Source of the DNA: Terriglobia bacterium
Lineage (GTDB): Bacteria > Acidobacteriota > Terriglobia > Bryobacterales > Bryobacteraceae
Assembly (NCBI GenBank): GCA_963732025.1
Contig: CAVSXU010000004.1
Span: 145,528 to 209,527 of the forward strand
DNA length: 64,000 bases
Direction: 5' to 3'
Below, in pieces: positions 2,519 to 52,697 of this stretch. Numbering within the stretch: position 1 is the stretch's first letter; the number at the start of each line of letters is the position of its first letter. The notes beneath the pieces are model-generated. The model searched no databases. It was not told the DNA's origin and saw only the letters and a program-made list of their open reading frames with translations. The position numbers and the translations under genes are program-made.

Positions 2519-2883
2519 TTACCGCGAGTGCGCCGTCGGCTCGACCAGCGCGCTCATCGATCCTTTCGACCTCGGCATGCGCGGATCGGCGCCATAGCCG
2601 TGAATCTGGTCGCGGCCGAACTCGGCCTGGTCGCGCTCGCAGGTCATGACGATGGTTCGACCCGTGGTGTCCACTTCGACGGCGTGATGAAAAGCCGTCT
2701 CCGGCGGCAGCATAAACAGCTTCCCGAGCATCTCGATCACGTAGTCGTAGGTATGGTCGTCATCGTCAACAGGACGACGTTGAACAGCGGCGAGAGGCGC
2801 TCGTCGTCGATTGTGTTGCCGGCGGGTTCAATCGCGGGGGCGATTGTGGGGCGGGGAGTCATCGCTGTATTGGAAACACTCAT
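2519..2883 (-). pseudogene. clpS: ClpS-like Clp protease adaptor, frameshift near 2767
   Basis: ATG at 2883 gives ...LSPLFNVVLL. One base out of frame it continues DDDDHTYDYVIEMLGKLF...AFHHAVEVDTTGRTIV (ORF 2519-2740), the conserved ClpS core. Confidence 0.7.
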
Positions 2884-2906
2884 TACGATGGTAAAATGAA
2901 GTGAAA

Positions 2907-3264
2907 GGGGGCGCAACGGATTCGACGGGATTGTATCTGTCGTGGTGAAGTCGTGCCGGGTTCCGAGCTCCCGTAAAACGATCGGAAAACAACAACTGCC
3001 AATAATCAGCAGTTTGCTTACGCTGCTTAATTAATTAGGTAGCCGCCCTGGGCCGATGGGCCTGCACTTGGTTTGAGGGCGTCATTTTGCAGGATAGGTC
3101 CAAAGCTTCCGTCCGGAGCCGAAAGCCGAGATCAATCGGGCTAAGCCGCCTCTCTCTTGCCGGTTTCCGCATGAGGCGGACGAAAAATAACGAACCGGAA
3201 ACGCACGTAGTCTTTTCGCGGTAGACTTTCTCGGACGCGGGTTCAACTCCCGCCGCCTCCACCA
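2907..3264 (+). ncRNA. ssrA: tmRNA (transfer-messenger RNA)
   Basis: 5' GGGGGCGCAACGGATTCGACGGG, 3' tRNA-like end GGACGCGGGTTCAACTCCCGCCGCCTCCACCA, internal tag ORF GCC AAT AAT CAG CAG TTT GCT TAC GCT GCT TAA = ANNQQFAYAA*. Confidence 0.95.
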
Positions 3265-19269: not shown

Positions 19270-20016
19270 ATGGGTATGAAAACAGCCATTGCGTTGATCG
19301 TTGCCGGCCTGCTCCCAGGGGCCGCATCTGCTTCCACCTCCTTCCTCTCCTTTACGGGAGCCCTTTCCAGTCCGGAAGATGTATTCGAAGTTACATTTTC
19401 GTTGTCCGCCACTGCCGACATTGAAATCGATACCTGGGGATTCGGCGGAGGCACGAACGCTGCCGGCGCCCTTATCCTGGCGGGCGGATTCGACCCCATG
19501 ATCTCGCTGTTTTCGGGCCCGCGGGCGACCGCGACCATTTACACGATTGCGGGAATTTCGGCTGCCGATGCGGATACGCTTTTTAATCCGCCGTTCTCGT
19601 TTGTGGGGAACTGTCCGCCCGCCGGGATGGTCACCATCGGGACAGGAAGCGGGAGCTCGGTTTGCGGCGACGATCTGATGCAGATTCCTGGACTGGCGGC
19701 GGCCGTCTACACTCTCGTTTTGAGCGATGCCAATTATATCCCCAACGCGGTGAATCCCGGGCCGCCGACCTTCTCCAATCTATCCGATGGCTTTTCCGAT
19801 TTGACCGGAGGCGTTTTCCAGACCTGCAATTTCACCTCCGACCAGCCTGCTGGGGTGTGCATGACGCCCAACGCCAACTACGCGGTGGACATCGTAGATC
19901 AATCCGGAGCGGCGCTTACTGACTCCCCCGAGCCTCGCACATTGGTGCTGCTTATCGCCGGTCTTACCACTCTCGCGTTTCTAAAGTTCCATCCTCGAAA
20001 AGGAGAATCGAAATGA
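19270..20016 (+). CDS. PEP-CTERM sorting-domain protein
   Basis: Signal peptide; C-terminal SPEPRTLVLLIAGLTTLAFLKFHPRK. Confidence 0.8.
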   Translation: MGMKTAIALIVAGLLPGAASASTSFLSFTGALSSPEDVFEVTFSLSATADIEIDTWGFGGGTNAAGALILAGGFDPMISLFSGPRATATIYTIAGISAADADTLFNPPFSFVGNCPPAGMVTIGTGSGSSVCGDDLMQIPGLAAAVYTLVLSDANYIPNAVNPGPPTFSNLSDGFSDLTGGVFQTCNFTSDQPAGVCMTPNANYAVDIVDQSGAALTDSPEPRTLVLLIAGLTTLAFLKFHPRKGESK

Positions 20017-24424: not shown

Positions 24425-26940
24425 CTACTTGAAAATATCCTTGAGCCGCCCGAAGAATCCCTTCTTCTCTCCCGTGGCAGCGGGCTTCGGCGCCGAACCG
24501 GGTGTGACCGGAATACTCCGCGCGTCTCTGGCCGTCGGTGCGGGCGATTGCGCGATCCCAGGCCGCCGATTATCCACCGTCTCGATCTTTGCCGGAGGCT
24601 GAGTCGGCTCCCACCCCGCGACAATGGTTCGTCCACCGCCATGCAGCGTGCACACATCGACGGGTTGCGTTCCGGCGATGAACATCTGGCTGCGAATCTT
24701 CGGGCAACTGGTGGTCGCCAGCAGGCCCGTTTCGGCGTCGATCTCGGTCGTGACGATTCCCTCGGGCGCGTCGAATCCGTGCACGTTGTGATACTCGCGA
24801 TGCTGGTGCGCGCGCTTCATGAACTCGGCCCAGATCGGCAGAGCGCTGTGCGCGCCTTCCAGCTTGAAGTCGCGATTGTCGTCGAACCCCACCCACACCA
24901 CGCAGATCAGTTTCGAAGTGAACCCGGCAAACCAGCCATCGCGCGACGTTCCGGTTTTGCCGGCGGCCGGCAGATTGAATCCGTATCCATGAACGCCGGC
25001 GCCGGTACCTGACCGCAGGACTTCTTCCATCATGTTCTCGACCAGGTACGCGACGCGCGGATCGATGGCCTGCTTCACTTCCTGCTTCGATTGGAAAATC
25101 GTATCGCCGCCTGCCGTCGCGGATGTTCTTGATGAAGCTGGTCTTCAGCAGATCTCCGCCATTGGGAAAACCGTGTAGGCGCCCGCGATTTCGAGCGGCG
25201 TCACTTCATAGGCGCCCAGCGCGATCGACGGCGTCGGCTTGATATCCACGTTCAATCCCGCCGCGCGCGCCATCGCGCGACTTTGTCGTAGCCCACCATC
25301 TCCGCGACTTTCACCGCCGGAATGTTCAGCGAATGCGCCAGCGCATACCACGCCGGAACTTCGGTTCCCTGATATTTCGGCGTATGTCAGCCGGCTCGTA
25401 GGGCTTGTCGTCGAACCAGAACGTGGTCGGTTCATCCATGATGAGCGTTGCCGGCGTGATCACGTTACTGCCGCCAGTGAGCGCCGTGTTGAACGCCGCC
25501 GCGTACACGAACGGCTTGAACGACGATCCCGGCTGCCGCTTCGCCATCGCGTGATCAACTGGCTGATGCCGTAGCTGCGCCCGCCCACCAGCGCCTTCAC
25601 CTCGCCGGTTTCCGCATCCAGGCACACCAGCGCGACCTGCGCCAGCGGCATCTCGTCGGTGCCGTATTTCTTGGACCGGCGCTTCCACTGCTTGTCGGTT
25701 TCCTCGATCCTGCTGCGGACCGCTTCCACGGCGTCGCGCTGCAGATTCATGTCGAGCGTCGTGTAGACCCGATAGGAGTTGTTCTGGAAATCGCGATCCT
25801 GAAAACGGTTCTGCAGCGTGTCGTTCACCAGATCGACGAAGTACGGCGCATCGCTCGATTCGGCCACTTCGCGAGTCACCTTGAGCGGCGACGCGGCCGC
25901 TTCCTGATACTGCTGCTCGGTGATGAAGCCGTTCTCGCGCATGGCCTTGAGCACGATGTTCCGGCGGGCCTTGGCGCGATCCGGATACCGGAACGGATTG
26001 CGCCCCATCGGCGACTGCATCATCCCCGCCAGCAACGCGGCTTCGGCGAGCTGACCTTGCTCAAGTCCTTGCCCAGGTAAACCTCGGCGCCCTTCGCGAA
26101 TCCCTGAATGCTGAAGCTGCCCTGATGCCCCAGGTCGATCGCGTTGGCGTAATACTCGAAGATCTGCTGCTTGGTAAGCTTCTGCTCCAGGTGCAGCGTG
26201 ATCAGCGTCTCGGGGATTTTGCGGCGCCAGCCCGCGCTCCGGACCCAGCCACAGCGTTCGCGCCAGTTGCTGCGTCAGGGTCGACGCGCCCTGGCTCGCT
26301 TTCCGGTCCTTGATATCCACCCACAGCGCGCGCATGATGCCGATCGGATCGAAGCCGGCATGCTGGAAGAAGTGCTTGTCCTCGGCCGCCAGCACCGCGT
26401 TCACCATCACCTTCGGAATGTCGTCGAAATGGACGATCCGGCGCTTCTCGCGCTTGCGGTCGAACAGATTGGTGATCAGTTCGGGCTCCAGCAGGAACTC
26501 GTTGCGCTCGGTCTGATCGCGCAGCGAAATGATCTGCGCGACTTGGCCGCGCTCGATCTTGATCACCGCGCCTTCGGAGTCGAACGCCTCCGGCCCGGGA
26601 TTGATCTCGATCGCGTCGGGCCGCACGTGATACCAGCCCAACCGGTTGCTCGACGATTCCGAATATCCCGCGCGCCGCAGATAGTCGGCGATCTCGCTCG
26701 CCTTGATTTCTTCGCCCACCGACACCGGCTGCGGGGCGGCGTAGAGCAGGGAAGTGTTGGCGAACGGCCCGCGCGAAGCTTTTCTTCGGTGATCCGCGCG
26801 TACGTGCGGTAGTAATACGTGAAGACACCAATCCCCGCCGTCACCGTAAGGACGAACGCCAGCAGGAACGCCTTCCCCCAGGAGCTTAGGAGAAAGCGAG
26901 TGAACCGGGCCTTCTTGGGAATTCGAAGCTTAAGCGCCAC
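24425..26940 (-). pseudogene. penicillin-binding protein 1A (glycosyltransferase/transpeptidase), at least 5 frame breaks
   Basis: Pieces 26563-26940 (TM anchor), 25460-26725 (AAEDKHFFQHAGFD, GASTLTQQLAR), 25326-25688 (SSFKPFVYAAA), 25145-25435, 24425-25078 (KTGTS) are collinear. Confidence 0.8.
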
Positions 26941-26982: not shown

Positions 26983-27389
26983 TCATTTTTTGGTTTCTTC
27001 CAGCGAAAATAGCTCTTTCCACATGTCTTCGTGGGGCTCCCAATCCGGCATCTGATGGCCGGTGATTTGCAGCTCGGCGACGCTCAGCGTCCCATGGCCG
27101 TACGGGCAAATGTATTCCGTGTGCGGCGCGCCCAACAGAACGTGATTCCAGGATCCCGCTGGATCGGCATGCGCAACCGGCGCAGGCACGTCCGGCAGCG
27201 ATAACGCTGATCCCATACGATGACCCAGGCGATGCCGACAGCAATCAGTCCAAACGCGAACATCGTCAGGTAATGAGCGAGATCGAAGGGTCTGGCGCGT
27301 GAAAAGCTGCGCTGAATCAGAGTCCAGAACGGATAGAGGAGACCGGCCGCCAACACCAGTTTCCCGACCAGATAGGCCCAGTACTTCAT
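26983..27389 (-). pseudogene. small membrane protein with C-terminal zinc-ribbon-like region, one frameshift
   Basis: ORF 27084-27389 (two TM segments, CRTC) continues in ORF 26983-27216 (...EYICPYGHG...). Confidence 0.45.
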
Positions 27390-29454: not shown

Positions 29455-31618
29455 TTACTTCAGGTTCCGATCAAAGAAGTCTAACATGCTGGCGTTCATC
29501 TGTCGCGCCGCAGCCCCGCTCACGCCGTGCGATTTCTGCGGATACAGCATGAATTCGAACTGCTTCCCCGCCAGTTGCAGAGCATCGGTCATCTGCAGCG
29601 TGTTCTGGAAAAGAACGTTGTCGTCCTCAAAGTTATGGACGATCATCAGCTTTGCTTTCAGATTCTTAGCCTTCGGAGGCAGCGCCGTCGCCCGATAGCC
29701 TTCGCCGTTTTCCGTCGGCAACCCCATGTAGCGCTCGGTGTAAATCGTGTCGTAATTCATGCATATTCGTCACCGGCGCTCCAGCTATCCCGCATTTGAA
29801 CACGTCCGGAGCGTTCAGGACCGCGTTCAGCGTCATGAAACCCCCATAGCTCCAGCCATGAATTCCGACCCGATCCGCATCCACATAGCCCAACGAAATC
29901 AGATATTTGACCCCAGCAACCTGATCCGTCAGTTCAGTAGTTCCCAGCGAACGAAAGACCGGCGTCTCGAACGCGTGGCCGCGGCCTTGTCCGCCTCGAT
30001 TCTCCGCCTGCCACACCACGTAACCGTGATGCGCGTAAGCCTGGTCGATCGAAACGCCCGACCACGAATTGTGAACCGGCAGCGCTACTCCGGGCCCTCC
30101 ATACACACTGACGATCGCCGGATACTTCTTGCCCGGCTGAAATCCTGCGGGCTTGATCACCTTCCCGTACAGCAGCGTTCCATCCGGTCCCTTGAAGCTG
30201 ACGATCTCCGTCGGCAGGATCTCGAACTCCTCCATCTGTCGACGATCGGCCTCGCGATACACACCCAATTCGGCGCCGTCGCCGGAATGCAGAGTCGTGC
30301 GCGGCGGCTGCGTCAAGGTCGAATACGTATCGAGATAGAAACTCCCGCCCGGTCCCATCGAAATGCTGTGCGAGCCCGGCGCGGTATCCAGCCGCTTCTT
30401 GTCGCCGCCATCCAGCTTCACGCTGAAAAAATGCGTCTCGAGCGAGCTGCCTTCGCTCGACGTGTAAAACACGCGATTGTTCTTTGCATCCACGCCTGCG
30501 ACACTGCGAACCTCCCACGGTCCTTTGGTGGCCTGCTTCAATTCCTTGCCATCGTTCGAGTAGACGTAAATGTGTCGGAAGCCATCGCGCTCGCTGGTCC
30601 ACAGGAATCGTTTTCCATCTTTCAGGAAATCGATATCGCCCTTCAAGTTGATCCAGTGCGGATCGGATTCCTTGAACACCGTCGTCGCCGTGCCCGATTC
30701 CACGCCGATCGACAACATCTCCAGCCGGTTCTGCACGCGATTCATGCGCAGCACGTAAATGCTCTTGGAATCCGGCATCCACCCGGCGCGCGCGATCAGA
30801 TACGCATTGCGAGTGTCGCCCACCTCCAGCCATTTCGTATTCCCGCCCGTCGCCGGCACCACGCCCAATCGAACGTCGGCATTATTCTCGCCCACCTGTG
30901 GATAGCGCTCTGGTTCATACAAGGCCCGCACACGCAGAACATCTTCGTGCGGATACAGCGGCTCACGAGCCGTATCGAACTGCATGTAGACGATCGATTT
31001 CGAATCGGGCGACCACCAGAAGGCCGTGCTCAAATCCAATTCCTCGGGATAAACCCAATCGAGCGTACCGTTGCGCAGCGTTTCGCTGCCGCCCTTGGTC
31101 AGCCGAGTCTCTTTGAGAGTCGCGACATCCACCGCATACAGATCGTATCCGCGCCGGAATGCGACCGACTTCGCATCGGGCGATAACTTGGCCTCGCGCT
31201 CTATTTCTGGAGTCTTCGTGAGCTGATCCCACTTGCCATCGTCGACATGAATGAGAAAAATATCGCCGCCTGTCGCGTACAGCAATTCTTTGCCACTCTG
31301 CGACCACTGCATGCCGCCCGCGCTGGCACGCCGATTCGTCCAATCGACCGGCCCATCTTCCACCGGACCCCTCACCGCCGCCGCATCCATAGCTTCGGTC
31401 GATACGAGATCCTTCGAGGTTTTCGTTGCAGGATTGTAGATCGCCAGCGATCGACCCTGGCGAGTCACGAATGTTTTCCCGTCAGGCGCCCAAGTAGCCG
31501 CTCCGCCGCCGCGTCCACCACCACCGCCGCGCCCTTCGTTCATCGATTCGAGCGTGATCGGTTTCTTTTGCGCGAACAGACTCGCGGAGAGCAGCGTGAA
31601 CAGAAGAACTTTTCGCAT
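29455..31618 (-). pseudogene. dipeptidyl-peptidase IV (S9B), one frameshift near 29700-29760
   Basis: 650-aa ORF with DPP-IV N-terminal propeller region and GWSYGG. The C-terminal 100 aa (ORF 29455-29760: ...MIVHNFEDDNVLFQN...) lie in another frame. Confidence 0.8.
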
Positions 31619-31714: not shown

Positions 31715-32572
31715 ATGAATTTCCGGGCAGCCTGGTGGCGATTCGGTATCGCGGTGGCAGTTGTCAGCGTGCTTGTCACCAGCGTGCGCGCCTTCCAACG
31801 ACCCTTTCGCGTTTACCAGAGCATGGAGGGTTACGACGATATTCCCCTGCCATCCGATTTTCAGGTTCCGGGGGAATTTGTGTTCGCGCGGCTGATGTAT
31901 CCCAATCATCCGCAAGCTCGCTTCGGCGGGCGACGGTGGGGGCAATACGGCGACTGGCGCGAAGGCTACACCAGTTGGACGCAGGATTATCCGCGTGCCG
32001 ACCGTCATTTCATCATGGCTCTGCGGCGCCTGACTCGATTGAATGCGCGATCGGTGGAACAGCCGGTGAATCTGGAAGATGGCGATGACATCTTCAACTG
32101 GCCTTGGCTCGCCGCAGGTGAGATGGGCGATTGGAAGTTGACGCCGGAGATGGCGGCCAAGCTTCGCGAGTATTTGCTGCGCGGCGGATTTTTGATGCTC
32201 GACGATTTCTGGGGTCCGGAGGAATGGGCTCGTTTCGACGAGAGCATGAAGCTGGTGTTCCCAGAGCGCGAGAGCAATGAAATCGACGACGCCGACCCGG
32301 TATTTCACGCGGTTTACGATTTGAACGACCGCATCCAGGTCCTCGGGCAATGGGGCTTGCGCGGCGGCGGGATGAGTTATCGTGTGCAGGGCACGCACGC
32401 GGAATGGAAGGGCATTTACGACGACAAAAAGCGGTTGGTGGTCGTGATGGATTTCAATTCGGATGTGGGCGATTCCTGGGAGTGGGCGGATTCGCCTACT
32501 TATCCCGAGGCTTTTTCAGCATTGGGGATGCGGATTGGCGTTAATTACGTTGTGTATTCGATGACGCATTAG
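31715..32572 (+). CDS. DUF4159-domain protein
   Basis: 285 aa: ...FVFARLMY...WTQDYPRADRHF...FNWPWLAAGEMGDWKLT...LREYLLRGGFLMLDDFWG... Confidence 0.65.
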   Translation: MNFRAAWWRFGIAVAVVSVLVTSVRAFQRPFRVYQSMEGYDDIPLPSDFQVPGEFVFARLMYPNHPQARFGGRRWGQYGDWREGYTSWTQDYPRADRHFIMALRRLTRLNARSVEQPVNLEDGDDIFNWPWLAAGEMGDWKLTPEMAAKLREYLLRGGFLMLDDFWGPEEWARFDESMKLVFPERESNEIDDADPVFHAVYDLNDRIQVLGQWGLRGGGMSYRVQGTHAEWKGIYDDKKRLVVVMDFNSDVGDSWEWADSPTYPEAFSALGMRIGVNYVVYSMTH

Positions 32573-32579
32573 GCGTGTC

Positions 32580-32724
32580 GTGAGGGCGGGGAATCGGCAG
32601 GCGGAATCACCTGCCCCACACGAAGACGCGCGCGCTCTTTACGGTCGCCCCGCAACTGCCGGGTGTGGGGAGGAAGAACTGGCCGACGTGGGCGTCGGTC
32701 GCGGACCTGGAGGTCCGCCCCACA
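32580..32724. repeat. cluster of GTGGGG-plus-hairpin REP-like units upstream of cas10
   Basis: GGCAGGCGGAATCACCTGCCCCACA; GCCGACGTGGGCGTCGG; GCGGACCTGGAGGTCCGCCCCACA. Confidence 0.65.
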
Positions 32725-32782
32725 AATACAAACACTCCCCGACCGTTACGCCTCAACTCAAGCCTTCAGGCGTGATACGCTG

Positions 32783-34258
32783 ATGGTTTCGCCTCTCTCG
32801 ATGTCGATCCAAATATTCCTCCAAGGCAAACTCCTCGGCATCGACGAGTTTCTGTTCGCACAATCCGAGCAGGACTACGACCAGGTCTTCACGGGCCGCT
32901 CGCACTGGATCAGCTTGCTGAGCGAGATCCTGCCGCGGGCGCTGCTGGCCGAACTAGGGCTGGCGAAGATACTTTTGGGATCGAGCGGGGGCGGACAGTT
33001 TCTATTGGTGCTGCCGCAGGAATCGCGGGATCAGGCGGAGGCTTTTCTGACCGCGGCGGCCAACGAGATCGCGGCGCTGAGCGATGGATCGCTCAAGCTG
33101 CTGTGGAGCGTCACGGAAAACCTCGGCGACTGGAGCGATGTGCGGCGACGGCTCACGGATGCGATGGATCATCGCCGCGGGACGCCGCTGGATCGCGGAT
33201 TCGAGGAGCAGGCTCCGCTGGATGCGGGGGCTCACGATTATTTCGCGGGTCATCTGGGGATGCGATTGCGCGATGCGGAATCCGCGTCGTGGTCGCCGGA
33301 AACGCCGGGTCGTATTTTGATCGGCGAAGGCAAGCATGTGTGGAATTTGAGCGGATCGTCGGCGGAGTCGCTGCCGTTCGCGCGGCATGCAGCGCCGAGC
33401 AACGCGGGAACCGAGCCGGCGTTGACGGCCGATCTGGCGGCGCGGGCGGTCGGGCTGAAAACGTGGGGCGTACTGCGCGGCGATGTCGACAATTTCGGGA
33501 TTCGGATTCGGCGTGCGCAGACCATTGAGGAACACATCCAGTTGTCGGTGATGTTCAAACAGTTCTTCGCGGGCGAATTGGAAGTGCTGTGCTCGATGCC
33601 GGAATTCTGGCGCAAGGTCACGGTGATTTATTCGGGCGGCGACGATTTTGCGGTGTATGGCGCTTGGGATGCGCTGGTGGGGCTGGCTCGCGAACTGGAG
33701 CGGCTGTTCCATCGATTTGCGGAATCGAATCTAAAGGATTTCGTGGGGCCGGAGGGCAAGACGATCACGATGGCGCTGGCGCTCGCGCCGGCTGCTGACG
33801 CGTCACTGGGCGCGGTGTTCGAAGAAGCCGGGCAGCGCCTGGAGGCAGCGAAATCGTCAGACAAGGATTGCATCTGGCTGCTGGGGCGGACGCTCGAATG
33901 GAAGCAGTTCGCGGAGGCAGCGGAGTTGAAGGATTCGCTGATGCGGATGATTGGGGAGTTCCACTGTTCGCCGCAATATCTGCGCGACTTGTGCGGGATT
34001 TATCGCGAAACGCAATCGAAGATGTCGCGGCGGCAGGCTCGGCGAAGCGGAGGCGAGCGGCCGTGGCGGTATCATCGGCGTATCCGGCGCATTCTGGGGG
34101 CAGCACGTCCGGCCGCACCCAAAGAACGCGAGCGTAATGAGTTTCAGAAAGCGCGGACGTCGCTGATCGCGGACCTGATCGGTCGCAGTGCGGTGACGGT
34201 GAAGTTGCGGCCCGCTGGACGGGTGGCGCTAGAATGGGCGAGGCTCTCGGCTGAATAA
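32783..34258 (+). CDS. cas10: minimal Cas10 (Csm1-like) lacking an HD domain, GGDD cyclase motif intact
   Basis: 491 aa from ATG 32783. Palm1-like: LGIDEFLF...GRSHWISLLSE...GSSGGGQFLLVLP. Palm2: WGVLRGDVDNFG...VIYSGGDDFAVYGAWD (GGDD at 33635-33646). ...KDCIWLLGRTLEWKQF. Confidence 0.85.
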   Translation: MVSPLSMSIQIFLQGKLLGIDEFLFAQSEQDYDQVFTGRSHWISLLSEILPRALLAELGLAKILLGSSGGGQFLLVLPQESRDQAEAFLTAAANEIAALSDGSLKLLWSVTENLGDWSDVRRRLTDAMDHRRGTPLDRGFEEQAPLDAGAHDYFAGHLGMRLRDAESASWSPETPGRILIGEGKHVWNLSGSSAESLPFARHAAPSNAGTEPALTADLAARAVGLKTWGVLRGDVDNFGIRIRRAQTIEEHIQLSVMFKQFFAGELEVLCSMPEFWRKVTVIYSGGDDFAVYGAWDALVGLARELERLFHRFAESNLKDFVGPEGKTITMALALAPAADASLGAVFEEAGQRLEAAKSSDKDCIWLLGRTLEWKQFAEAAELKDSLMRMIGEFHCSPQYLRDLCGIYRETQSKMSRRQARRSGGERPWRYHRRIRRILGAARPAAPKERERNEFQKARTSLIADLIGRSAVTVKLRPAGRVALEWARLSAE

Positions 34259-34300
34259 CACCTGGGTAACACCAGGCAGAGCAGGGCAAGAGGGGATTGT

Positions 34301-35090
34301 ATGGAAGACGAAGTCCAAGAAAAATCATCGGGCGGCGGCACGCTGAGCGAGGCGTTGGCGGGGGCTTTGAAGTTGGAGGTCCCGAAGGCGGAAGCTCCTA
34401 ACGGAAGCTCCAAACCGGAAGCGGCGACCGAATCCAGCTCGACAGAAGCTGCTGCGACGGAAACGGCGAAGCCCGACGAGGCCGCGAAAGCGGATGCTCC
34501 GAAGCAGGAATCGCAAAAGGCGCAGGGCGGGCAGCGGCAACAGGGGCGTCCGCAGGGACAGCCTCGCGAGGCGCGTCCTCCTCGTCCGCAGGGTCAAGGT
34601 GGAGGGCCGGGCGGCGAACGGCGACCGGAGAATCGTGGCGGGGAACATCGCGGCGGCGATCGTGGGGAACGGCGAGGGCCCGGCGGGCGGACATGGCGGC
34701 GAACGTCGCGAAGGTGGGCGTCCGGGCGGAAGGCCGTTCGACGGGCCGCCGGCGGATATCGAACTCGAGAAGCTGATCTCCGACAGTTTGTATCTCGACA
34801 ATCAGGCGCACGCGGTCGTGGTGCGAATGCGCGATATGGATTCGGGCACGAAGAGTCAATTGCGGCGTTTGTACAATGCGGTTCGGCGAGCGGTGCGAGC
34901 GCCGGAGAACGAGCGTCAACATCATTTCGTGATGCTGCGGGCGCGGCTGGCGTACACGATCGCTCGGCATTCGCTGCGCAGCCTGGATGCGCTGGAGCGG
35001 TTGCTGCTGCAGGTCACCAGAAGAAACGACGCGCGCGGTTACGAGCGCTTCAAAGATCTGTTCGAGGCGATCGTCGCCTACAACGAGTAA
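34301..35090 (+). pseudogene. csm2: Csm2-like small subunit with long low-complexity N-terminal extension; apparent frameshift near 34685
   Basis: C-terminal domain ...SQLRRLYNAVRR...MLRARLAYTIARH...FKDLFEAIVAYNE (frame of ORF 34494-35090). The N-terminal E/A/K then G/R/Q/P-rich region lies in the frame of ORF 34301. Confidence 0.7.
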
Positions 35091-35097
35091 AGGAACC

Positions 35098-35931
35098 ATG
35101 AGCTCACATACCGCTCAGACGCAACTTCAATTGGTCGGCAAGCTGATTTTTTCGGGCGATCTGCACTGCGAAACCGGACTGCATATCGGCGCGGGCAAGG
35201 GATCGCTCGAGATCGGCGGCGCGGATAATCCGGTCGTCAAAGACGCCTTCGGGCTTCCTTATATTCCGGGCAGCTCGCTGCGCGGCAAGGTTCGATCGCT
35301 GCTGGAGAACGCGATGGGCCTGACGACTCCGGCGGAGCTGGTGTATCTGTCGAAGCGCCGCGGCCAGGAGGTTCGGATTCACCAGAGCGATCGTCCGGAT
35401 GACGAAATCTGCCTGCTGTTCGGACGTTCGCCCGGCCGGGTCGAGAAGGTCGAAGGCGGAGAGACGGGCGAGAATCGCGCGGCGAGCCCGGCTCGGCTGA
35501 CGATTTACGACGCACCGCTGGATCAGGAGAGCATCACGGCGCAGATGCGCGAGAATCTGGACGACGAGATCACGGAGGTCAAGAGCGAGAACGCGATCGA
35601 CCGGATCACGTCGCAGGCGAATCCGCGGACGTTGGAACGCGTGCCTGCGGGGGCGCGGTTCAAGGTCCGCATGGTGCTGGATGTTTTGTGCGAGGAGGAC
35701 AAGGCGCTGGCGGCTCGGGTAGTCGAAGGGCTGCGGCTGCTGGAAGATGACGCGCTGGGCGGCGGCGGATCGCGCGGCAGCGGTCGGGTGCGGTTCGGCA
35801 ATTTGAAATTGATCTGGCGCAATCGCGAGTTTTATTCGGCGGGCGGCGATGAGGCGGAATTGGCGTCGGGCGCGGATCTGGCGGCGGTGCAGAAGCTGGC
35901 GGCGGACGGGTTCGGGGAGAAGTTGAGTTAG
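35098..35931 (+). CDS. csm3: Csm3 (Cas7-group RAMP)
   Basis: LHIGAGKGSLEIGGADNPVVKDAFGLPYIPGSSLRGKVRSLLE...ENAIDRITSQANPRTLERVPAG...GGGGSRGSGRVRF. Confidence 0.9.
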   Translation: MSSHTAQTQLQLVGKLIFSGDLHCETGLHIGAGKGSLEIGGADNPVVKDAFGLPYIPGSSLRGKVRSLLENAMGLTTPAELVYLSKRRGQEVRIHQSDRPDDEICLLFGRSPGRVEKVEGGETGENRAASPARLTIYDAPLDQESITAQMRENLDDEITEVKSENAIDRITSQANPRTLERVPAGARFKVRMVLDVLCEEDKALAARVVEGLRLLEDDALGGGGSRGSGRVRFGNLKLIWRNREFYSAGGDEAELASGADLAAVQKLAADGFGEKLS

Positions 35932-35945
35932 ATAGCGTCAAGACT

Positions 35946-35994
35946 TGTGCGACACTGAAGTGTCGACACTGCACGCTGGACGTGCGCGCGCCAC
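35946..35994. repeat. REP-like element between csm3 and csm4
   Basis: TGTGCGACACTGAAGTGTCGACACTGCACGCTGGACGTGCGCGCGCCACA. Confidence 0.6.
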
Positions 35995-36017
35995 ATTTCC
36001 AATGCTGATTCAATCTA

Positions 36018-36998
36018 TTGCCCACCGCGCCTTGGCGCATCGGACCCGACTCGGGCGATCGCGATCGCGTGGATCGCATCTATCACAGCGACTCGCTGTA
36101 TTCGGCTGTGTCTGGTGCGATGGTCCAACTCGGGTATATCGAGGAATGGATCGCCGCGACGGCGCTGGCGGACGAGCCTGCGGTGCGGTTCAGCTCGTGT
36201 TTTCCATTTCAGGGCGAGACTCGATTCATTGTTCCGCCGAGAAGTTTGTGGCCGCCGCCGGCGTCATCCAAAGTTCGATGGCGAGGCGCGAAGTTTGTGC
36301 CGCTGAGCGTTGTGAACGACCTATTGAACTCTAAAACGCTTTCGGAAGAAGGCTGGACGGTCGATCCCGCGAGCGAGTGCCTGATCAAGATCGGCGAACC
36401 GGGGCCGTTTCGAGTGGCAGTGCGATCGAGCGCGGCGGTCGATCGGTTCGGTTCCGGTGTAGCGCCGCATTCGACAGCCTGTATCGAGTTCGCGCCAGGG
36501 GCGGGACTCTGGGCGTCGGCGGAATTCTCGAACGACGCGGCGCGCGAGCAGTGGAGCACGAAGCTAAAGGGCGCGTTGCGGCTGTTGGCCGATTCCGGAT
36601 TCGGCGGCGAGCGATCGCGAGGTTGGGGCCGAGCGGAGGTTTCCTTCTCCGACGACGTGCTTCCGTTTACGTCGGTAACGGCGTCGGCAACTGACGCCGC
36701 AAGCGATCCCTCTGGATGGTGGATGCTATCGCTATTTCATCCCGCTGCAGGCGACGATATCGATTGGAAGCGGGGCAGCTACGCTCTGACTACGCGGGGC
36801 GGACGCGTCGAGAGTTCCGCGAGCTGGGGCGACGCGAAGAAACCGACGCGCATGATCGCGGAAGGCTCGGTGATTGTGGCGGGAAGCGCGCCACTCGGGT
36901 CGGCCGCGAATGTGGCTCCAGATGATTTTCCGCATCCTGTCTATCGCGCCGGGTTCGCGTTTGCCATACCGATTCCGTGGAGGCAGGCGGCGTTATGA
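36018..36998 (+). CDS. csm4: Csm4-like (Cas5-group RAMP)
   Basis: TTG start. ...PWRIGPDSG...IYHSDSLYSAVSGAM...; G-rich loop SGFGGERSRGWGRAEVSF. Confidence 0.8.
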   Translation: MPTAPWRIGPDSGDRDRVDRIYHSDSLYSAVSGAMVQLGYIEEWIAATALADEPAVRFSSCFPFQGETRFIVPPRSLWPPPASSKVRWRGAKFVPLSVVNDLLNSKTLSEEGWTVDPASECLIKIGEPGPFRVAVRSSAAVDRFGSGVAPHSTACIEFAPGAGLWASAEFSNDAAREQWSTKLKGALRLLADSGFGGERSRGWGRAEVSFSDDVLPFTSVTASATDAASDPSGWWMLSLFHPAAGDDIDWKRGSYALTTRGGRVESSASWGDAKKPTRMIAEGSVIVAGSAPLGSAANVAPDDFPHPVYRAGFAFAIPIPWRQAAL

Positions 36999-38117
36999 CA
37001 GGCACCGGTATGAGATATCGCCTCACGTGCCTCACGCCTACGCTGATCGGAGACGGGCAAAGGCTCGCGCCGATCGATTACATGGTGTGGAAGGACCACG
37101 TCAATGTGCTCGACCAGCGGCGGATTTTTAAGCTGCTGGCGAAGGGTCCTCGGCTGGAGGGATATCTCGCGCAGTTGAAAAAAGCCGAGCGGCTGGATTT
37201 CGCGGATTGGGGCGGGTTCGCGCAGAATTTCGCGGGCCGCCGGATTCCGTTCGAACACGCGAGCTCGATTCCGCTTTGGGAGCGCGCGAAACCCGAGCAG
37301 CTTTTCATTCCGACGTTCGCGGTGTCGCCGTCGGGTCCTTATATTCCGGGCACCGCGATCAAAGGCGCGCTGCGGACGGGCGCAGTTCACGATCGCTGGA
37401 GCGAGGCGACGATGCGCGATCTGGCGAATCGGCTGGCGAATGACGATCGTCCTCCGCGGAATCCGGCGGCGCGCGCCGAGGAAGCGGTGCTGGGCGGCGG
37501 TGGATCGAATCGGATGCGCAGGGTAGCGGCGGGAGATTCCGCATCGTCGACGCATCAGGGCATGAAGGTGTATCTGATGCGCGTTGCGACTTTGGTTGCG
37601 AAGGGTCCTGAGAAGTTTGAGGTCGGGTGGAAGTCCGGGCGCGGTTCGGTGGACACTCGGCGGATTGAAGATAGTACGCCGATGTTCATCGAGATGGCCT
37701 CGCCGGGCGCTTCGTTCGAGGGCGTGTGGCAGGAGAAGTCGGTCAGCGATCGCGCGAAGCTGTTCAACGCCGCGAATAAGTTTGCCTCGGCTCAGTTGGC
37801 GAAGCACAAGCAGTATGCGGCGTCGACGGGGTTGAGCCGCGCTGACGGAGACGGTTGGGCGGCTGGAAACGAAGGTTGAAGAAATCGGGCGCGGCCAGAA
37901 CGCGTGCGTCGTTTCGATCGGCTGGGGTGGTGGATTGGTCGGCAAGTCTTCCTATTTGGAGACGACGGACGAGTCGTATCGCCAGATCATGAAGACGGAT
38001 GCGTTTTATCGGGATGCGCTGCGGACGGGGATGCCGTTTCCGAAGACTCGCAAGGTTATTTTCGAAGGCGGAAAGCCCGCGAGTTTGCCGGGTTGGGTTT
38101 TGATCGAGACGGTGTAG
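36995..38117 (+). pseudogene. csm5: Csm5-like (Cas7-group RAMP), apparent frameshift near 37840
   Basis: ATGA overlap with csm4. ...LTPTLIGDGQRLAPIDYMVW...PYIPGTAIKGALRT.... C-terminus ...VVSIGWGGGLVGKSSYL...PGWVLIETV lies in the frame of ORF 37935-38117. Confidence 0.75.
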
Positions 38118-38160
38118 GGCCGGCAAGAATGCCGGCTGCAGCCAGAATAGGCTGCCCCAC
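38118..38160. repeat. two tandem GC hairpins plus CCCCAC, downstream of csm5
   Basis: GGCCGGCAAGAATGCCGGC and GCAGCCAGAATAGGCTGC followed by CCCACA; no U-tract. Confidence 0.5.
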
Positions 38161-38164
38161 ATCA

Positions 38165-38650
38165 CTACAGGCGCATTTCGTTGGTTGGCTTGAAACCTAG
38201 TGATTCATACAACGCGCGCCCATCGGGACTCGCGTGAAGAATCACGGTGCCGACCTGATTGGCCTCGCACCATCCCAAGGCGGTTGTCATCAGGGCACGA
38301 CCTATTCCTTGGCGGCGATGCGCAGGTTCCGTATAGACATTCAGAATATTGCCGCGCCAGCGGCTGCCTGCGCCGAGCATGTGGGGCGGCCAGTCCATCA
38401 GCCAGAGCCCCAGTCCCGCTGCGATGGAGGAATCGGGCGCCAGTGCGAACCACGCGAGGTACTCGCCGGCTTCCATTTTTCCTTGCAGCCAGAGGCGGAA
38501 GCTCGCGGCCATGGCTCGCAGGACTGCGTCGTCGGCATAACCCATGTCCATGAACATCGCTTGGCGGTGATGGACAATTGCATCCAGGTCGGTGGACGTG
38601 GTGGTGGCTTGGCGGATCACCATTTTCCGAGGATACAAAATGTGGCGCAC
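38165..38650 (-). CDS. GNAT-family N-acetyltransferase
   Basis: ...VYTEPAHRRQGIGRALMTTALGWCE...LHASPDGRALYESLGF. Confidence 0.8.
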   Translation of the reverse strand: MRHILYPRKMVIRQATTTSTDLDAIVHHRQAMFMDMGYADDAVLRAMAASFRLWLQGKMEAGEYLAWFALAPDSSIAAGLGLWLMDWPPHMLGAGSRWRGNILNVYTEPAHRRQGIGRALMTTALGWCEANQVGTVILHASPDGRALYESLGFKPTNEMRL

Positions 38651-38804: not shown

Positions 38805-40109
38805 CTAGCCGACGACTTCGAGGATCAACTCGCGCTCATCCGGCGGAGCGCCAGCGATGCGGAACGCGTCTTCGACCAACTGCGAGGCTTCCTCGACGTT
38901 GTCCTCGGCAGTGTAGTACAAGCGGCACAATACGCCGCCCGCGTCCACCTTCTGGCCGACCTTCACTTCGAGAATCACGCCGACTGCCGGGTCGATTCCA
39001 TCTTCCTTGGTATCGCGGCCCGCGCCGATCATCGCCGAAGCCTGGCCGATGTATTCGGCATCGATCGCGCTGACGTAGCCTGCGCGCGGAGATGAAATCT
39101 CGCGAGCACCAGTCGCGTTCGGCAGCAGCTCGAAGCGATCCATCACTTGCGGATTTCCGCCCTGCGCGGCGATCACGTCCTTGAACTTGCGATAGCCAGA
39201 TCCGTCGAGCAGCTTCTTCTGCGCGATCTCGCGCGCTTCTTCGAGCGTGGGGCAGATCTTGCCCAGATAGATCATGCGCGATGCGAGTTCCAGCGAAAGC
39301 CGCGTCAGATCGGTAGGTCCGACGTTCTGCAGCGTCTGCGAAACTTCCATCACTTCGAGCGCATTGCCGATCGCAAAACCAAGCGGCTGATTCATATCGG
39401 TGATCAGGGCCTGGACACGCTTGTCCATGCGGCGGCCGATCCCGACCATCATCTGCGCGAGCCTGCGCGCGTCCACCTGGCGCTTCATGAATGCGCCCGT
39501 GCCCACCTTCACATCGAGCACCAGCGCGTCGAGTCCGACGGCCAGTTTTTTCGACATGATCGACGACGCGATCAGCGGGATCGATTCGACAGTAGCGGTT
39601 GAATCGCGCAGCGAGTAGAGTTTTCCATCGGCGGGCGCGATCTGCGGTGTCTGCCCGATGAAGGCGAGCTTATGCTGCAGGAGCTGCTCGCGAAATTCGT
39701 CAATCGTGAGATTAGTGCGGAAGCCCGGAATCGATTCCAGCTTGTCGAGCGTGCCGCCAGTGTGGCCGAGCGCGCGCCCCGAAATCATCGGGACAACGAC
39801 GCCGGCCGCGGCCGCAATCGGAGCCGCAATCAAACTGGTTTTGTCGCCAACGCCGCCGGTGGAATGCTTATCCACTTTCACACCGGGCACGGCGGACAGG
39901 TCCACGTGTTCGCCGGACAGCAGCATACGCTCAGTCAAGGCGCTGACTTCGCGGTCCGTCATACCGGAGAAAAACACGGCCATCAAAAACGCGGAAATCT
40001 GATAATCCGGTATGCTTCCGTTGGTATAACCGTCAACGAGGAGAGCAATTTCCTCGGTGGACAGCTCTTCGCCGTCCCTCTTGCGATGGATCAGGTCGAC
40101 AGTACGCAT
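38805..40109 (-). CDS. deoA: thymidine/pyrimidine-nucleoside phosphorylase
   Basis: 434 aa: MRTVDLIHRKRDGEELSTEEI...ISAFLMAVFFSGMT...DKHSTGGVGDKTSL. Confidence 0.9.
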   Translation of the reverse strand: MRTVDLIHRKRDGEELSTEEIALLVDGYTNGSIPDYQISAFLMAVFFSGMTDREVSALTERMLLSGEHVDLSAVPGVKVDKHSTGGVGDKTSLIAAPIAAAAGVVVPMISGRALGHTGGTLDKLESIPGFRTNLTIDEFREQLLQHKLAFIGQTPQIAPADGKLYSLRDSTATVESIPLIASSIMSKKLAVGLDALVLDVKVGTGAFMKRQVDARRLAQMMVGIGRRMDKRVQALITDMNQPLGFAIGNALEVMEVSQTLQNVGPTDLTRLSLELASRMIYLGKICPTLEEAREIAQKKLLDGSGYRKFKDVIAAQGGNPQVMDRFELLPNATGAREISSPRAGYVSAIDAEYIGQASAMIGAGRDTKEDGIDPAVGVILEVKVGQKVDAGGVLCRLYYTAEDNVEEASQLVEDAFRIAGAPPDERELILEVVG

Positions 40110-45130: not shown

Positions 45131-45235
45131 TGTGGGGTGGACCGCCAGATCTGATGTGTGGGGTGGACCGCCAGATCTGATGTGTGGGGTGGACCGCCAG
45201 GCCTTGTGGGGTGGACCGCCAGGTCTGCAAGCCGA
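45131..45235. repeat. tandem repeat, 4 copies of a 22-26 bp TGTGGGGTGGACCGCCAG unit
   Basis: Copies start at 45131, 45157, 45183 and 45205; no unique spacers. Confidence 0.85.
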
Positions 45236-52538: not shown

Positions 52539-52697
52539 TGTGGCGCACGCACTCTTGCGTGCCGTGTCGACACTCATGTCGACACGAGCTTTGTCAAGCG
52601 CTGGAAAGAGAATCATAACGATCCGGGTGGGAGGCGCCCAGGAAAAACTTGTGTCGACATGAGTGTCGACACGGCACGCAAGAGTGCGTGCGCCACA
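52539..52697. repeat. 160-bp MITE-like element with near-perfect 47-bp terminal inverted repeats
   Basis: Left arm TGTGGCGCACGCACTCTTGCGTGCCGTGTCGACACTCATGTCGACAC (52539-52585); right arm is its reverse complement (52651-52697). Confidence 0.85.

Follow-up and report, generated by a model that had tools for sequence, protein, structure and literature searches.

What does a CRISPR effector complex do when its genes stand apart from every other part of a CRISPR system? The question is raised by a 64-kb stretch of DNA from a Terriglobia bacterium of the Bryobacteraceae (assembly GCA_963732025.1, contig CAVSXU010000004.1, positions 145,528–209,527 of the forward strand), hereafter the window, which holds a five-gene type III-A (Csm) effector operon, cas10-csm2-csm3-csm4-csm5, at 32783–38117 on the plus strand. 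An original prediction, made from the letters of the window alone, had offered two alternatives for this operon: a module fed in trans by a distant array and Cas6, or a domesticated complex working with a non-CRISPR guide or with none. Here, we compare the operon with numbered related loci (L001, L002 and so on) and favour, with a probability of about 45%, the reading that it encodes a functional III-A-derived Csm ribonucleoprotein that is chromosomally fixed, largely vertically inherited within the Bryobacterales and uncoupled from CRISPR. The evidence leans towards array independence because no array was found in 173 loci (the window and 172 relatives, with flanks covered up to ~10 kb), the genes evolve at core-like rates, no mobile copies were found and the GGDD motif of Cas10 has been lost repeatedly in deep branches.

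Judged by its signature genes, the operon is a type III-A effector module. All five proteins passed the trusted cut-offs of the NCBIfam III-A equivalog models, in agreement with the five-gene csm operon of the original prediction. The product of cas10 (csm1; 32783–34258, 491 aa) scored 179.2 bits on TIGR02578 (cut-off 170) and matched the Pfam families Cas10-Cmr2_palm2 (5e-20) and Csm1_B. It is followed on the same strand by csm2 (Cas11; 34301–35090), with a Pfam Csm2_III-A match at 5e-10 and 42.5 bits on TIGR01870 (cut-off 30.6) for its frame-0 part, and by csm3 for the Cas7 backbone RNase (35098–35931, 277 aa; 206.8 bits on TIGR02582, cut-off 90). The Cas5-like csm4 (36018–36998, 326 aa, TTG start; 133.9 bits on TIGR01903, cut-off 55; Pfam Csm4_C 1e-11) overlaps csm5 by ATGA, and csm5 (36995–38117) reached 48.3 bits on TIGR01899 (cut-off 38.3) with its N-terminal part. 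The end of the operon had earlier been placed at 38165, which is instead the end of a convergent gene; the operon stops at 38117. Between csm3 and csm4 lies a lineage-specific spacer of 86 nt (35932–36017) with many indels relative to the nearest relative, L001 (ENA ERZ26871208 contig_166802_np1212, 489 kb, 97% nucleotide identity), and the corresponding gap in L002 is only 2 nt. The spacer contains the palindrome GTGTCGACAC, which occurs four times in the window (35960, 42200, 52564 and 52663) against 0.11 expected; besides the copy in the spacer, two copies bracket an 87-nt unit at 52564–52673.

The Cas10 of this operon is reduced to Palm1, a shortened linker, Palm2 and the D4 domain, without an HD domain. 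In a profile of 15 homologues, its residues 11–85 align with Palm1 of the 813-aa Csm1 8wfx_A (residues 273–349) and residues 213–316 with Palm2 of the same protein (residues 544–666), and its N-terminus coincides with the end of the HD domain in canonical Csm1. No HD nuclease is encoded: the protein begins at Palm1, and only 210 nt lie upstream. Because the homologues begin with MS[VI]QIFLQGKL, of which the QIFLQGKL Palm1 strand opens every one, the true start is probably the ATG at 32801, which gives a protein of 485 aa. The linker between the two Palm domains spans ~125 aa, compared with ~190 aa in canonical Csm1, and contains no CxxC pairs as read from the sequence, so that the zinc-finger insert appears to have been lost. 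An N-terminal HD domain is common in Cas10 of type III-A systems (~65%) without being obligatory. Across type III systems as a whole, HD-less Cas10 is frequent, with 61% of loci, and HD-less, cyclase-positive loci without an effector make up 133 of 1,113 (PMC11229360). The earlier description of a Cas10 of about 491 aa that starts at Palm1 and hides no HD domain upstream thus held, at 485–491 aa and with homologues alike. The suspicion that it might be a fragment of a longer gene fails, given more than 120 close and ~24 deep clusters of 430–530 aa, and truncation or a mis-called start is ruled out by homologues that share both the length and the start.

Such short Cas10 proteins are widespread and uniform. 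Among 5.8 billion proteins searched, more than 120 Cas10 clusters were 77–93% identical; their lengths were 477–524 aa apart from a single one of 460 aa, and wherever a source was named, it was Bryobacteraceae. An exhaustive representative search yielded ~24 full-length clusters at the 50%-identity level, 433–530 aa long and reaching down to ~27–40% identity, and canonical Csm1 proteins of 760–800 aa appeared only at E ~1e-28 or weaker. Because cluster lengths are uniform and canonical Csm1 comes in only far off, the comparison sets the short Cas10 apart as a discrete clade and not as a product of truncation. Relatives are encoded by 261 GTDB species genomes, and among the 80 of these that were listed, all but one mislabelled bin are named as Acidobacteriota, mostly as Bryobacterales/Bryobacteraceae or Terriglobia. 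A metagenome scan contributed 80 further loci, and look-ups of deep representatives an extra clade at 37–40% Cas10 identity. One member of that clade, L084, lies on a 191-kb contig with PSCyt, PSD1 and DUF1501 genes, which suggests a host outside the Acidobacteria.

The operon is also stable in gene content and order. All five genes are present in the same order in 102 of the 106 evaluable loci; the remaining four (L035, L037, L046 and L059) have only cas10-csm2-csm3 followed by unrelated genes and may be decayed or rearranged. One metagenome-assembled genome (MAG; MFD05513.bin.2.190) holds two paralogous operons with 59% Cas10 identity (L019 on CAWEXX010000001.1 and L072 on CAWEXX010000003.1). 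No relatives were found on viral contigs or plasmids, and a phage or plasmid origin of the operon was rejected on this ground. Neighbouring genes vary among loci and yet recur as blocks; upstream, these comprise genes for a GSDH-type dehydrogenase, a hydrolase and a response regulator, and downstream lepB and manC. In genome pairs with 72–78% Cas10 identity, Csm3 is 83–85% identical and the syntenic housekeeping proteins 64–77%, and the divergence of the Csm proteins does not exceed that of the neighbouring LepB, ManC and CobA-like genes. These core-like rates, the recurring neighbour blocks and a nearly invariant Csm2 domain identify a long-resident, largely vertically inherited cluster under strong constraint, unlike what a defence island would show. 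A gene for a CAP12/PCTIR-type TIR-domain protein lies ~1.2 kb upstream of cas10 in L002 and L027 (7944–8753, minus strand); it occurs in one lineage and is probably coincidental.

No other part of a CRISPR system was found near the operon. In the 64-kb window, TRF, a direct-repeat search and a k-mer periodicity scan found no repeat-spacer array, and across the 173 loci, 2.25 Mb in all, every k-mer match proved to be a tandem or coding repeat; a hidden array in the window or in the 172 related loci was rejected on this ground. Several carriers are multi-Mb contigs, of which 21 kb were covered. PADLOC, applied to open reading frames (ORFs) from 90–130 aa up to 650 aa, matched no Cas, CARF or SAVED family among the 70 other ORFs of the window, the sole match being PD-T4-6. 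Among 268 flanking proteins of 25 diverse relatives it matched no Cas1, Cas2, Cas6, Csm6 or CARF family and returned generic helicase and other defence-like families only, with one flank scan comprising the best 25 of 64 matched families. The Pfam context of L001, L002 and L084 showed no effector responsive to cyclic oligoadenylate, and an Rfam scan of the window gave tmRNA and one tRNA only. The earlier statements that the 64 kb lack an array, cas6, cas1, cas2 and CARF- or SAVED-type effectors, and that the tandem repeats of the window have no spacers, were both borne out by the repeat scans and PADLOC. Hence, within the sequence available, a complete III-A system with an array, cas6, cas1/2 and Csm6 is absent.

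Two candidates for a non-coding partner were considered. The 210-nt spacer between the upstream DUF4159 gene and cas10 (32573–32782) contains one copy of a dispersed 18-mer, TGTGGGG[CT]GGACC[TG]CCAG, on the minus strand (32707–32724), which is also the core of a tandem repeat with a 26-nt period and four copies at 45131–45230; given this recurrence, the label of REP-like (resembling a repetitive extragenic palindrome) that the spacer had received was a reasonable one. Six related loci have the 18-mer at dispersed positions that are not tied to cas10, and a role of the spacer as a solo repeat or guide was rejected as the element is dispersed and precedes cas10 in no relatives other than L001 and L020. 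A conserved non-coding RNA beside the operon was likewise rejected: upstream gaps are often ~20–130 nt long behind differing neighbours, and Rfam returned nothing. A simple scan of the cas10 upstream spacer found no sigma-70-like promoter. All-versus-all blastn of the flanks recovered as shared elements only the REP element and a promoter and 5' untranslated region that belongs to a downstream ATPase gene described below.

Two of the five genes are broken in the window assembly. Relative to L001, csm2 has an extra C at 34684 within a C run and csm5 one extra base at ~37835 beside a G run; deletion of base 34684 restores a Csm2 of 262 aa and deletion of base 37835 a Csm5 of 373 aa, and the intact proteins are 265 aa long for Csm2 in L001 and 366 aa for Csm5 in L002. 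The last 80 codons of csm5 (37875–38114, GWGGG...PKTRK) consequently lie in the other frame (frame 3). The csm genes are nevertheless under strong purifying selection. Compared with L001, the window has a ratio of non-synonymous to synonymous substitution rates (dN/dS) of 0.038 for cas10, 0 for the csm2 domain, 0.051 for csm3, 0.027 for csm4 and 0.045 for the N-terminal part of csm5, and the 80 csm5 codons past the break have 13 synonymous and no non-synonymous differences (dN/dS 0); the flanking deoA and NHL genes stand at 0.06 and 0.07. The flanks are broken at the same rate as the operon, with at least eight frame breaks in 19 kb of the window against two in the 5.3 kb of the operon: a penicillin-binding protein (PBP) gene (24428–26940) changes frame at least four times relative to L001, and a gene for a 135-aa protein (26986–27389) and a DPP-IV peptidase gene (29458–31618) are split once each. 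With this background and the low dN/dS even past the break, the frame breaks in csm2 and csm5 are probably assembly errors, and pseudogenization was rejected on dN/dS and the background indel rate of the assembly. The csm5 of L001 itself has an in-frame TAA (15092–15097, corresponding to ~37872 of the window) ~40 nt past the point that corresponds to the frameshift of the window, and a GTG follows after 6 nt. Two distinct disruptions thus fall in the same poorly conserved csm5 linker in two strains that are 97% identical, either as coincidental errors or as a real split of csm5.

The restored Csm2 has an unusual build, which the first reading of the sequence had overlooked together with both frameshifts. 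In the window, ~150 aa of low complexity, rich in Ala, Glu and Pro and then in Arg and Gly, precede the Csm2 domain. Similar extensions were present in 44 of the 47 sequences examined, with a median of 125 aa and a range of ~30–214 aa, and consist of 10–29% Arg, 10–27% Gly, 9–22% Pro and 7–20% Glu. Their composition is conserved and their sequence is not, in contrast to the Csm2 domain, which is nearly invariant among deep clades. Cas11 proteins usually diverge fast in defence systems.

Which activity of the complex is conserved can be judged from its two catalytic motifs. The GGDD of the Palm2 cyclase/polymerase motif is encoded at 33635–33646 on the plus strand (GGCGGCGACGAT), exactly where it had been located, and is invariant in the 15 close homologues and present in 78 of the 80 GTDB loci; the corresponding count in the metagenome set is biased, given that GGDD was part of the search pattern. 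The earlier term 'cyclase-competent' therefore stands as far as an intact motif goes, and its support lies at the level of the motif. In the deep representatives, GGDD deviates in 9 of 24 (GGQD, GVAG, GADD, GGDE, GGDN, SNDG, GASD, GLGE and GIEG), and the motifs TENLGxW, GKTISMALA, RPWRxHRR and LRPxGRVALEWARL are conserved in the same proteins despite the change. Across Cas10 overall, the cyclase site is kept in ~92–97% (PMC11229360, PMC12669027). The Csm3 catalytic residue, Asp43 within IGGADNPV (codon 35224–35226), is kept in the window as the original prediction had noted, and the motif IGG[AS]DNPV is found in 148 of the 151 Csm3 sequences across loci. The Asp is retained even in the clade P0149 (L089 and L090), in which GIEG takes the place of GGDD. 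Because the Csm3 Asp stays while GGDD deviates in deep branches, what the family appears to conserve as its output is the binding of RNA and its cleavage by the backbone of Csm3; signalling by Cas10 looks to have been kept in the window's clade and to be dispensable elsewhere. The original prediction had called the output of the system unclear, a judgement that still holds, but to which two leads can be added: the Asp of Csm3, which is invariant, and an ATPase that is often linked to the operon.

This ATPase gene, of the AAA_22 family and encoding 290–315 aa, stands directly after csm5, in the same orientation, in 47 of the 87 loci that could be evaluated (for example L015, 15389–16261; L072, 15630–16541; L084, 15255–16145), and is absent from the window. 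The loci concerned fall within L004–L140 and include the distant clade of L084, L085, L093 and L094 as well as both operons of the MAG with two paralogues. The protein reached 292 bits on TIGR03015, the XrtA/PEP-CTERM-associated ATPase family, which is under the cut-off of 324.5, and is weakly similar to MuB. In the main clade, the gene has its own conserved TGnTACTAT promoter-like element: an extended -10-like element, TG(G/T)TACTATCGA(A/T)(A/G)AGTA, lies ~60–130 nt before the start and is followed by a purine-rich leader and a GAGGG...CCCTC hairpin (seen in L008, L011, L014, L015, L018–L022, L029, L031, L034, L041 and L043). This stretch is probably the promoter and 5' untranslated region of the ATPase gene, and the linkage of the gene to csm is suggestive. 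Just after it, divergent clades have small ORFs with hydrophobic N-termini and tandem proline-rich repeats (NLGPTLPPSPWDDPSDN, YGPLPPPPLEDPPS and HSPFPPPDDPPGVRLA), namely at L072 17009–17533, L084 16296–16700, L095 17353–17862, L098 7744–8193 and L126 ~19459–19617; by their sequence, the products look secreted.

Taken together, these observations sharpen the choice between the two alternatives of the original prediction and move it towards a domesticated or array-independent complex, with the trans-fed module still quite possible, if on balance doubtful. That module would be a split type III-A system, in which Csm is loaded in trans from a distant array, crRNA (CRISPR RNA) is matured by a host RNase or by a Cas6 from another CRISPR-Cas locus, and Cas10 signals to CARF or SAVED effectors that are encoded far away. 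The crRNA-binding subunits, the Csm3 Asp and GGDD are all intact, as such a system would have them, and there are precedents: subtype III-G loci have no arrays and are thought to borrow crRNAs (PMC12669027), and for the 133 effector-less loci it has been discussed that crRNA processing and effectors may be shared in trans (PMC11229360). The survey of loci speaks against it, with no array within up to 10 kb in 173 loci and no cas6, cas1, cas2 or CARF gene near the 25 sampled ones. Moreover, at least 261 species genomes have the operon, which shows core-like rates and partial synteny, whereas CRISPR arrays and their type I partners tend to be patchily distributed; near-invariance of Cas11 across deep clades is atypical for defence; and GGDD has been lost repeatedly in deep branches. 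Several points nonetheless weigh against uncoupling from CRISPR, or against an intact complex. An array with cas6 could lie elsewhere in the carrier genomes; no candidate for a non-CRISPR guide was found, nor any non-coding element common to the loci; and the subunits that hold a crRNA are all conserved, Csm4 and Csm5 for its two ends and Csm3 and Csm2 for the stretch between, as a crRNA-guided complex needs. In the main Bryobacterales clade, GGDD is retained almost throughout, which suggests that signalling still matters there, yet no receptor was found. The AlphaFold2 model of Cas10, built from a shallow alignment of 15 sequences, has a pLDDT of 39 and is unusable, and the TAA of L001 together with the frameshift of the window could represent real decay of csm5 in this sublineage.

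Two further explanations put the weight elsewhere. We consider it rather improbable that the family has ceased to target RNA and that its Csm proteins form a scaffold for regulated nucleotide cyclization or for RNA sensing on behalf of the AAA_22 ATPase, with Csm3 cleavage secondary, in a role that might belong to envelope or exopolysaccharide biology or to a new defence pathway. Such a role would account for the ATPase following csm5 in over half of the loci, including the 37–40% clade and both MAG paralogues, and for the small secreted-looking proline-rich repeat protein after it in several divergent loci; however, the gene is absent from the window and from ~46% of loci, it has its own promoter-like element in the main clade, and part of the linkage could reflect synteny with housekeeping genes such as lepB and manC. 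Among the catalytic features of the family, moreover, the Csm3 Asp is the best conserved, which argues for a central role of RNA cleavage. Very unlikely, finally, is a decaying remnant, that is, a set of pseudogenes left after the loss of array and cas6. The two frame breaks of the window (34684 and ~37835), the in-frame stop in csm5 of L001 and the four relatives that keep only cas10-csm2-csm3 (L035, L037, L046 and L059) could be read in this way. At odds with it, dN/dS is 0–0.05 for each of the five genes, the changes past the csm5 break are synonymous without exception (13 against 0) and 102 of 106 loci are complete, and the PBP, DPP-IV and 135-aa genes, broken at the same rate relative to L001, point to homopolymer indels of the assembly.

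If the operon indeed encodes an array-independent, chromosomally fixed Csm ribonucleoprotein, Cas10 and Csm4 would nucleate a filament of Csm3 and Csm2 on an RNA from a source other than a CRISPR array, and Csm5 would cap the filament; the loading of such an RNA is modelled on type IV-B complexes. Csm3 would cut bound complementary transcripts at 6-nt intervals as the conserved output. In lineages with GGDD, including that of the window, target binding may also trigger a nucleotide signal from Cas10, the receptor for which would not be encoded nearby. The Arg/Gly-rich extension of Csm2 may supply non-specific RNA affinity, and the XrtA-associated-type AAA_22 ATPase would be a likely partner in about half of the genomes, the window's not among them. 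A fuller version of this proposal is more tentative, and on balance we think it unlikely: a domesticated, near-core III-A complex of the Bryobacterales, with soil and aquatic outliers, that has neither array nor Cas6, takes up host or other non-CRISPR RNAs, cleaves through Csm3 with optional Cas10 signalling and acts in RNA surveillance or regulation, helped by the Cas11 extension and the ExeA/MuB-like AAA_22 protein. Were it true, type IV-B would have a counterpart in type III, and the operon would represent a new variant at the level of a subtype.

The remaining features of the window have no evident part in the system. Upstream of the operon, the DUF4159 gene (31715–32572, plus strand) ends at 32572, which confirms the spacer of ~210 bp before cas10 reported earlier, and the neighbours in this position vary among loci. 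Downstream, a convergent GNAT acetyltransferase gene (38165–38650, minus strand) is followed by deoA (38805–40109, minus strand); the flanks (DUF4159, GNAT and deoA) had been called unrelated, and the DUF4159 and GNAT genes are indeed not parts of the system. A probable prophage lies within the region 2836–~17000, integrated beside the tmRNA gene (2836–3264), with an integrase-type ORF from 3271, and Pfam matches of prophage type among the window ORFs comprise a lambda-type portal, the ATPase and nuclease of a gpA terminase and a phage capsid. Short tandem repeats without spacers occupy 17456–17790 (GGGAAACCGG six times, a 31-nt unit three times at 17597–17713 and a 27-nt unit twice), where GC is lower (0.53).

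Compared with canonical III-A Csm complexes (Streptococcus thermophilus, Staphylococcus epidermidis, Thermococcus onnurineus and Lactococcus lactis; for example PDB 8wfx, 9g9a, 7uzw, 6mur and 6ifn), the operon encodes the same five subunits in the same order and shares Palm1, Palm2 with GGDD and the catalytic Asp of Csm3. It differs in a Cas10 of ~485 aa instead of 750–810 aa, from which the HD domain is gone and in which the linker is shortened and without Cys pairs; in the Arg/Gly/Pro/Glu-rich extension of Csm2, 50–214 aa long; in the lack of an array, cas6, cas1/2 or csm6 near any examined locus; and in core-gene-like rates with mostly vertical inheritance within one order. Type III systems that lack HD and only signal are known from Vibrio metoecus, in which Cmr acts with NucC (PMC8682760), and from Bacteroides fragilis, in which Cmr acts with CorA through SAM-AMP (PMC10600005). 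Like them, the operon has no HD domain, keeps the cyclase motif and would have its output through a nucleotide signal, the backbone RNase or both; unlike it, they are of subtype III-B, lie beside arrays and have the effector (NucC or CorA) in the locus. Subtype III-G of the Sulfolobales is likewise a product of reductive evolution, an effector module without an adaptation module or an array in the locus; its cyclase is inactivated, its HD domain apparently active and its Cas7 Asp not conserved, and Csx26 stands in place of Cas11 (PMC12669027). The present operon, with GGDD, Csm2 and the Csm3 Asp and without HD, is its opposite on these four counts and does not belong to that subtype.

Type IV-B (Csf) systems are array-less and Cas6-less, mostly plasmid-borne, and form Cascade-like complexes on non-CRISPR RNAs. 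The operon resembles them as a stand-alone, conserved class 1 effector operon with no array, cas6 or adaptation genes found within ~10 kb in the loci examined, and differs from them in consisting of Csm and not Csf families, which are unrelated at the subtype level, and in being chromosomal, with no plasmid or virus copies found. The 'minimal CRISPR polymerase' mCpol is a single Palm domain without Csm2–5 partners; it is a reduced Cas10-type Palm cyclase that operates outside CRISPR, as the present Cas10 may do as a two-Palm protein within a full Csm operon. Neither the 2025 classification (PMC12669027) nor the 2024 survey of type III systems (PMC11229360) mentions this variant or the Acidobacteria, which is not proof that it is undescribed. 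Single traits such as an HD-less Cas10 or a cyclase-positive locus without an effector are not novel. What is unusual is the combination: a clade of reduced Cas10 proteins, an extended Cas11, core-like conservation across an abundant order of soil bacteria, no CRISPR parts nearby and a recurrent AAA_22 gene. As a natural minimal Cas10 (~485 aa, no HD), the protein could be used for studies of mechanism and for tool-building, and the operon makes a question directly testable, namely what guides a class 1 complex after the loss of CRISPR. If distant arrays do feed the operon, it would still be an unusually conserved subtype-level variant of III-A that is missing from the 2025 classification; if it is independent of CRISPR, type III effectors would be exaptable for functions outside CRISPR, as has been proposed for type IV-B.

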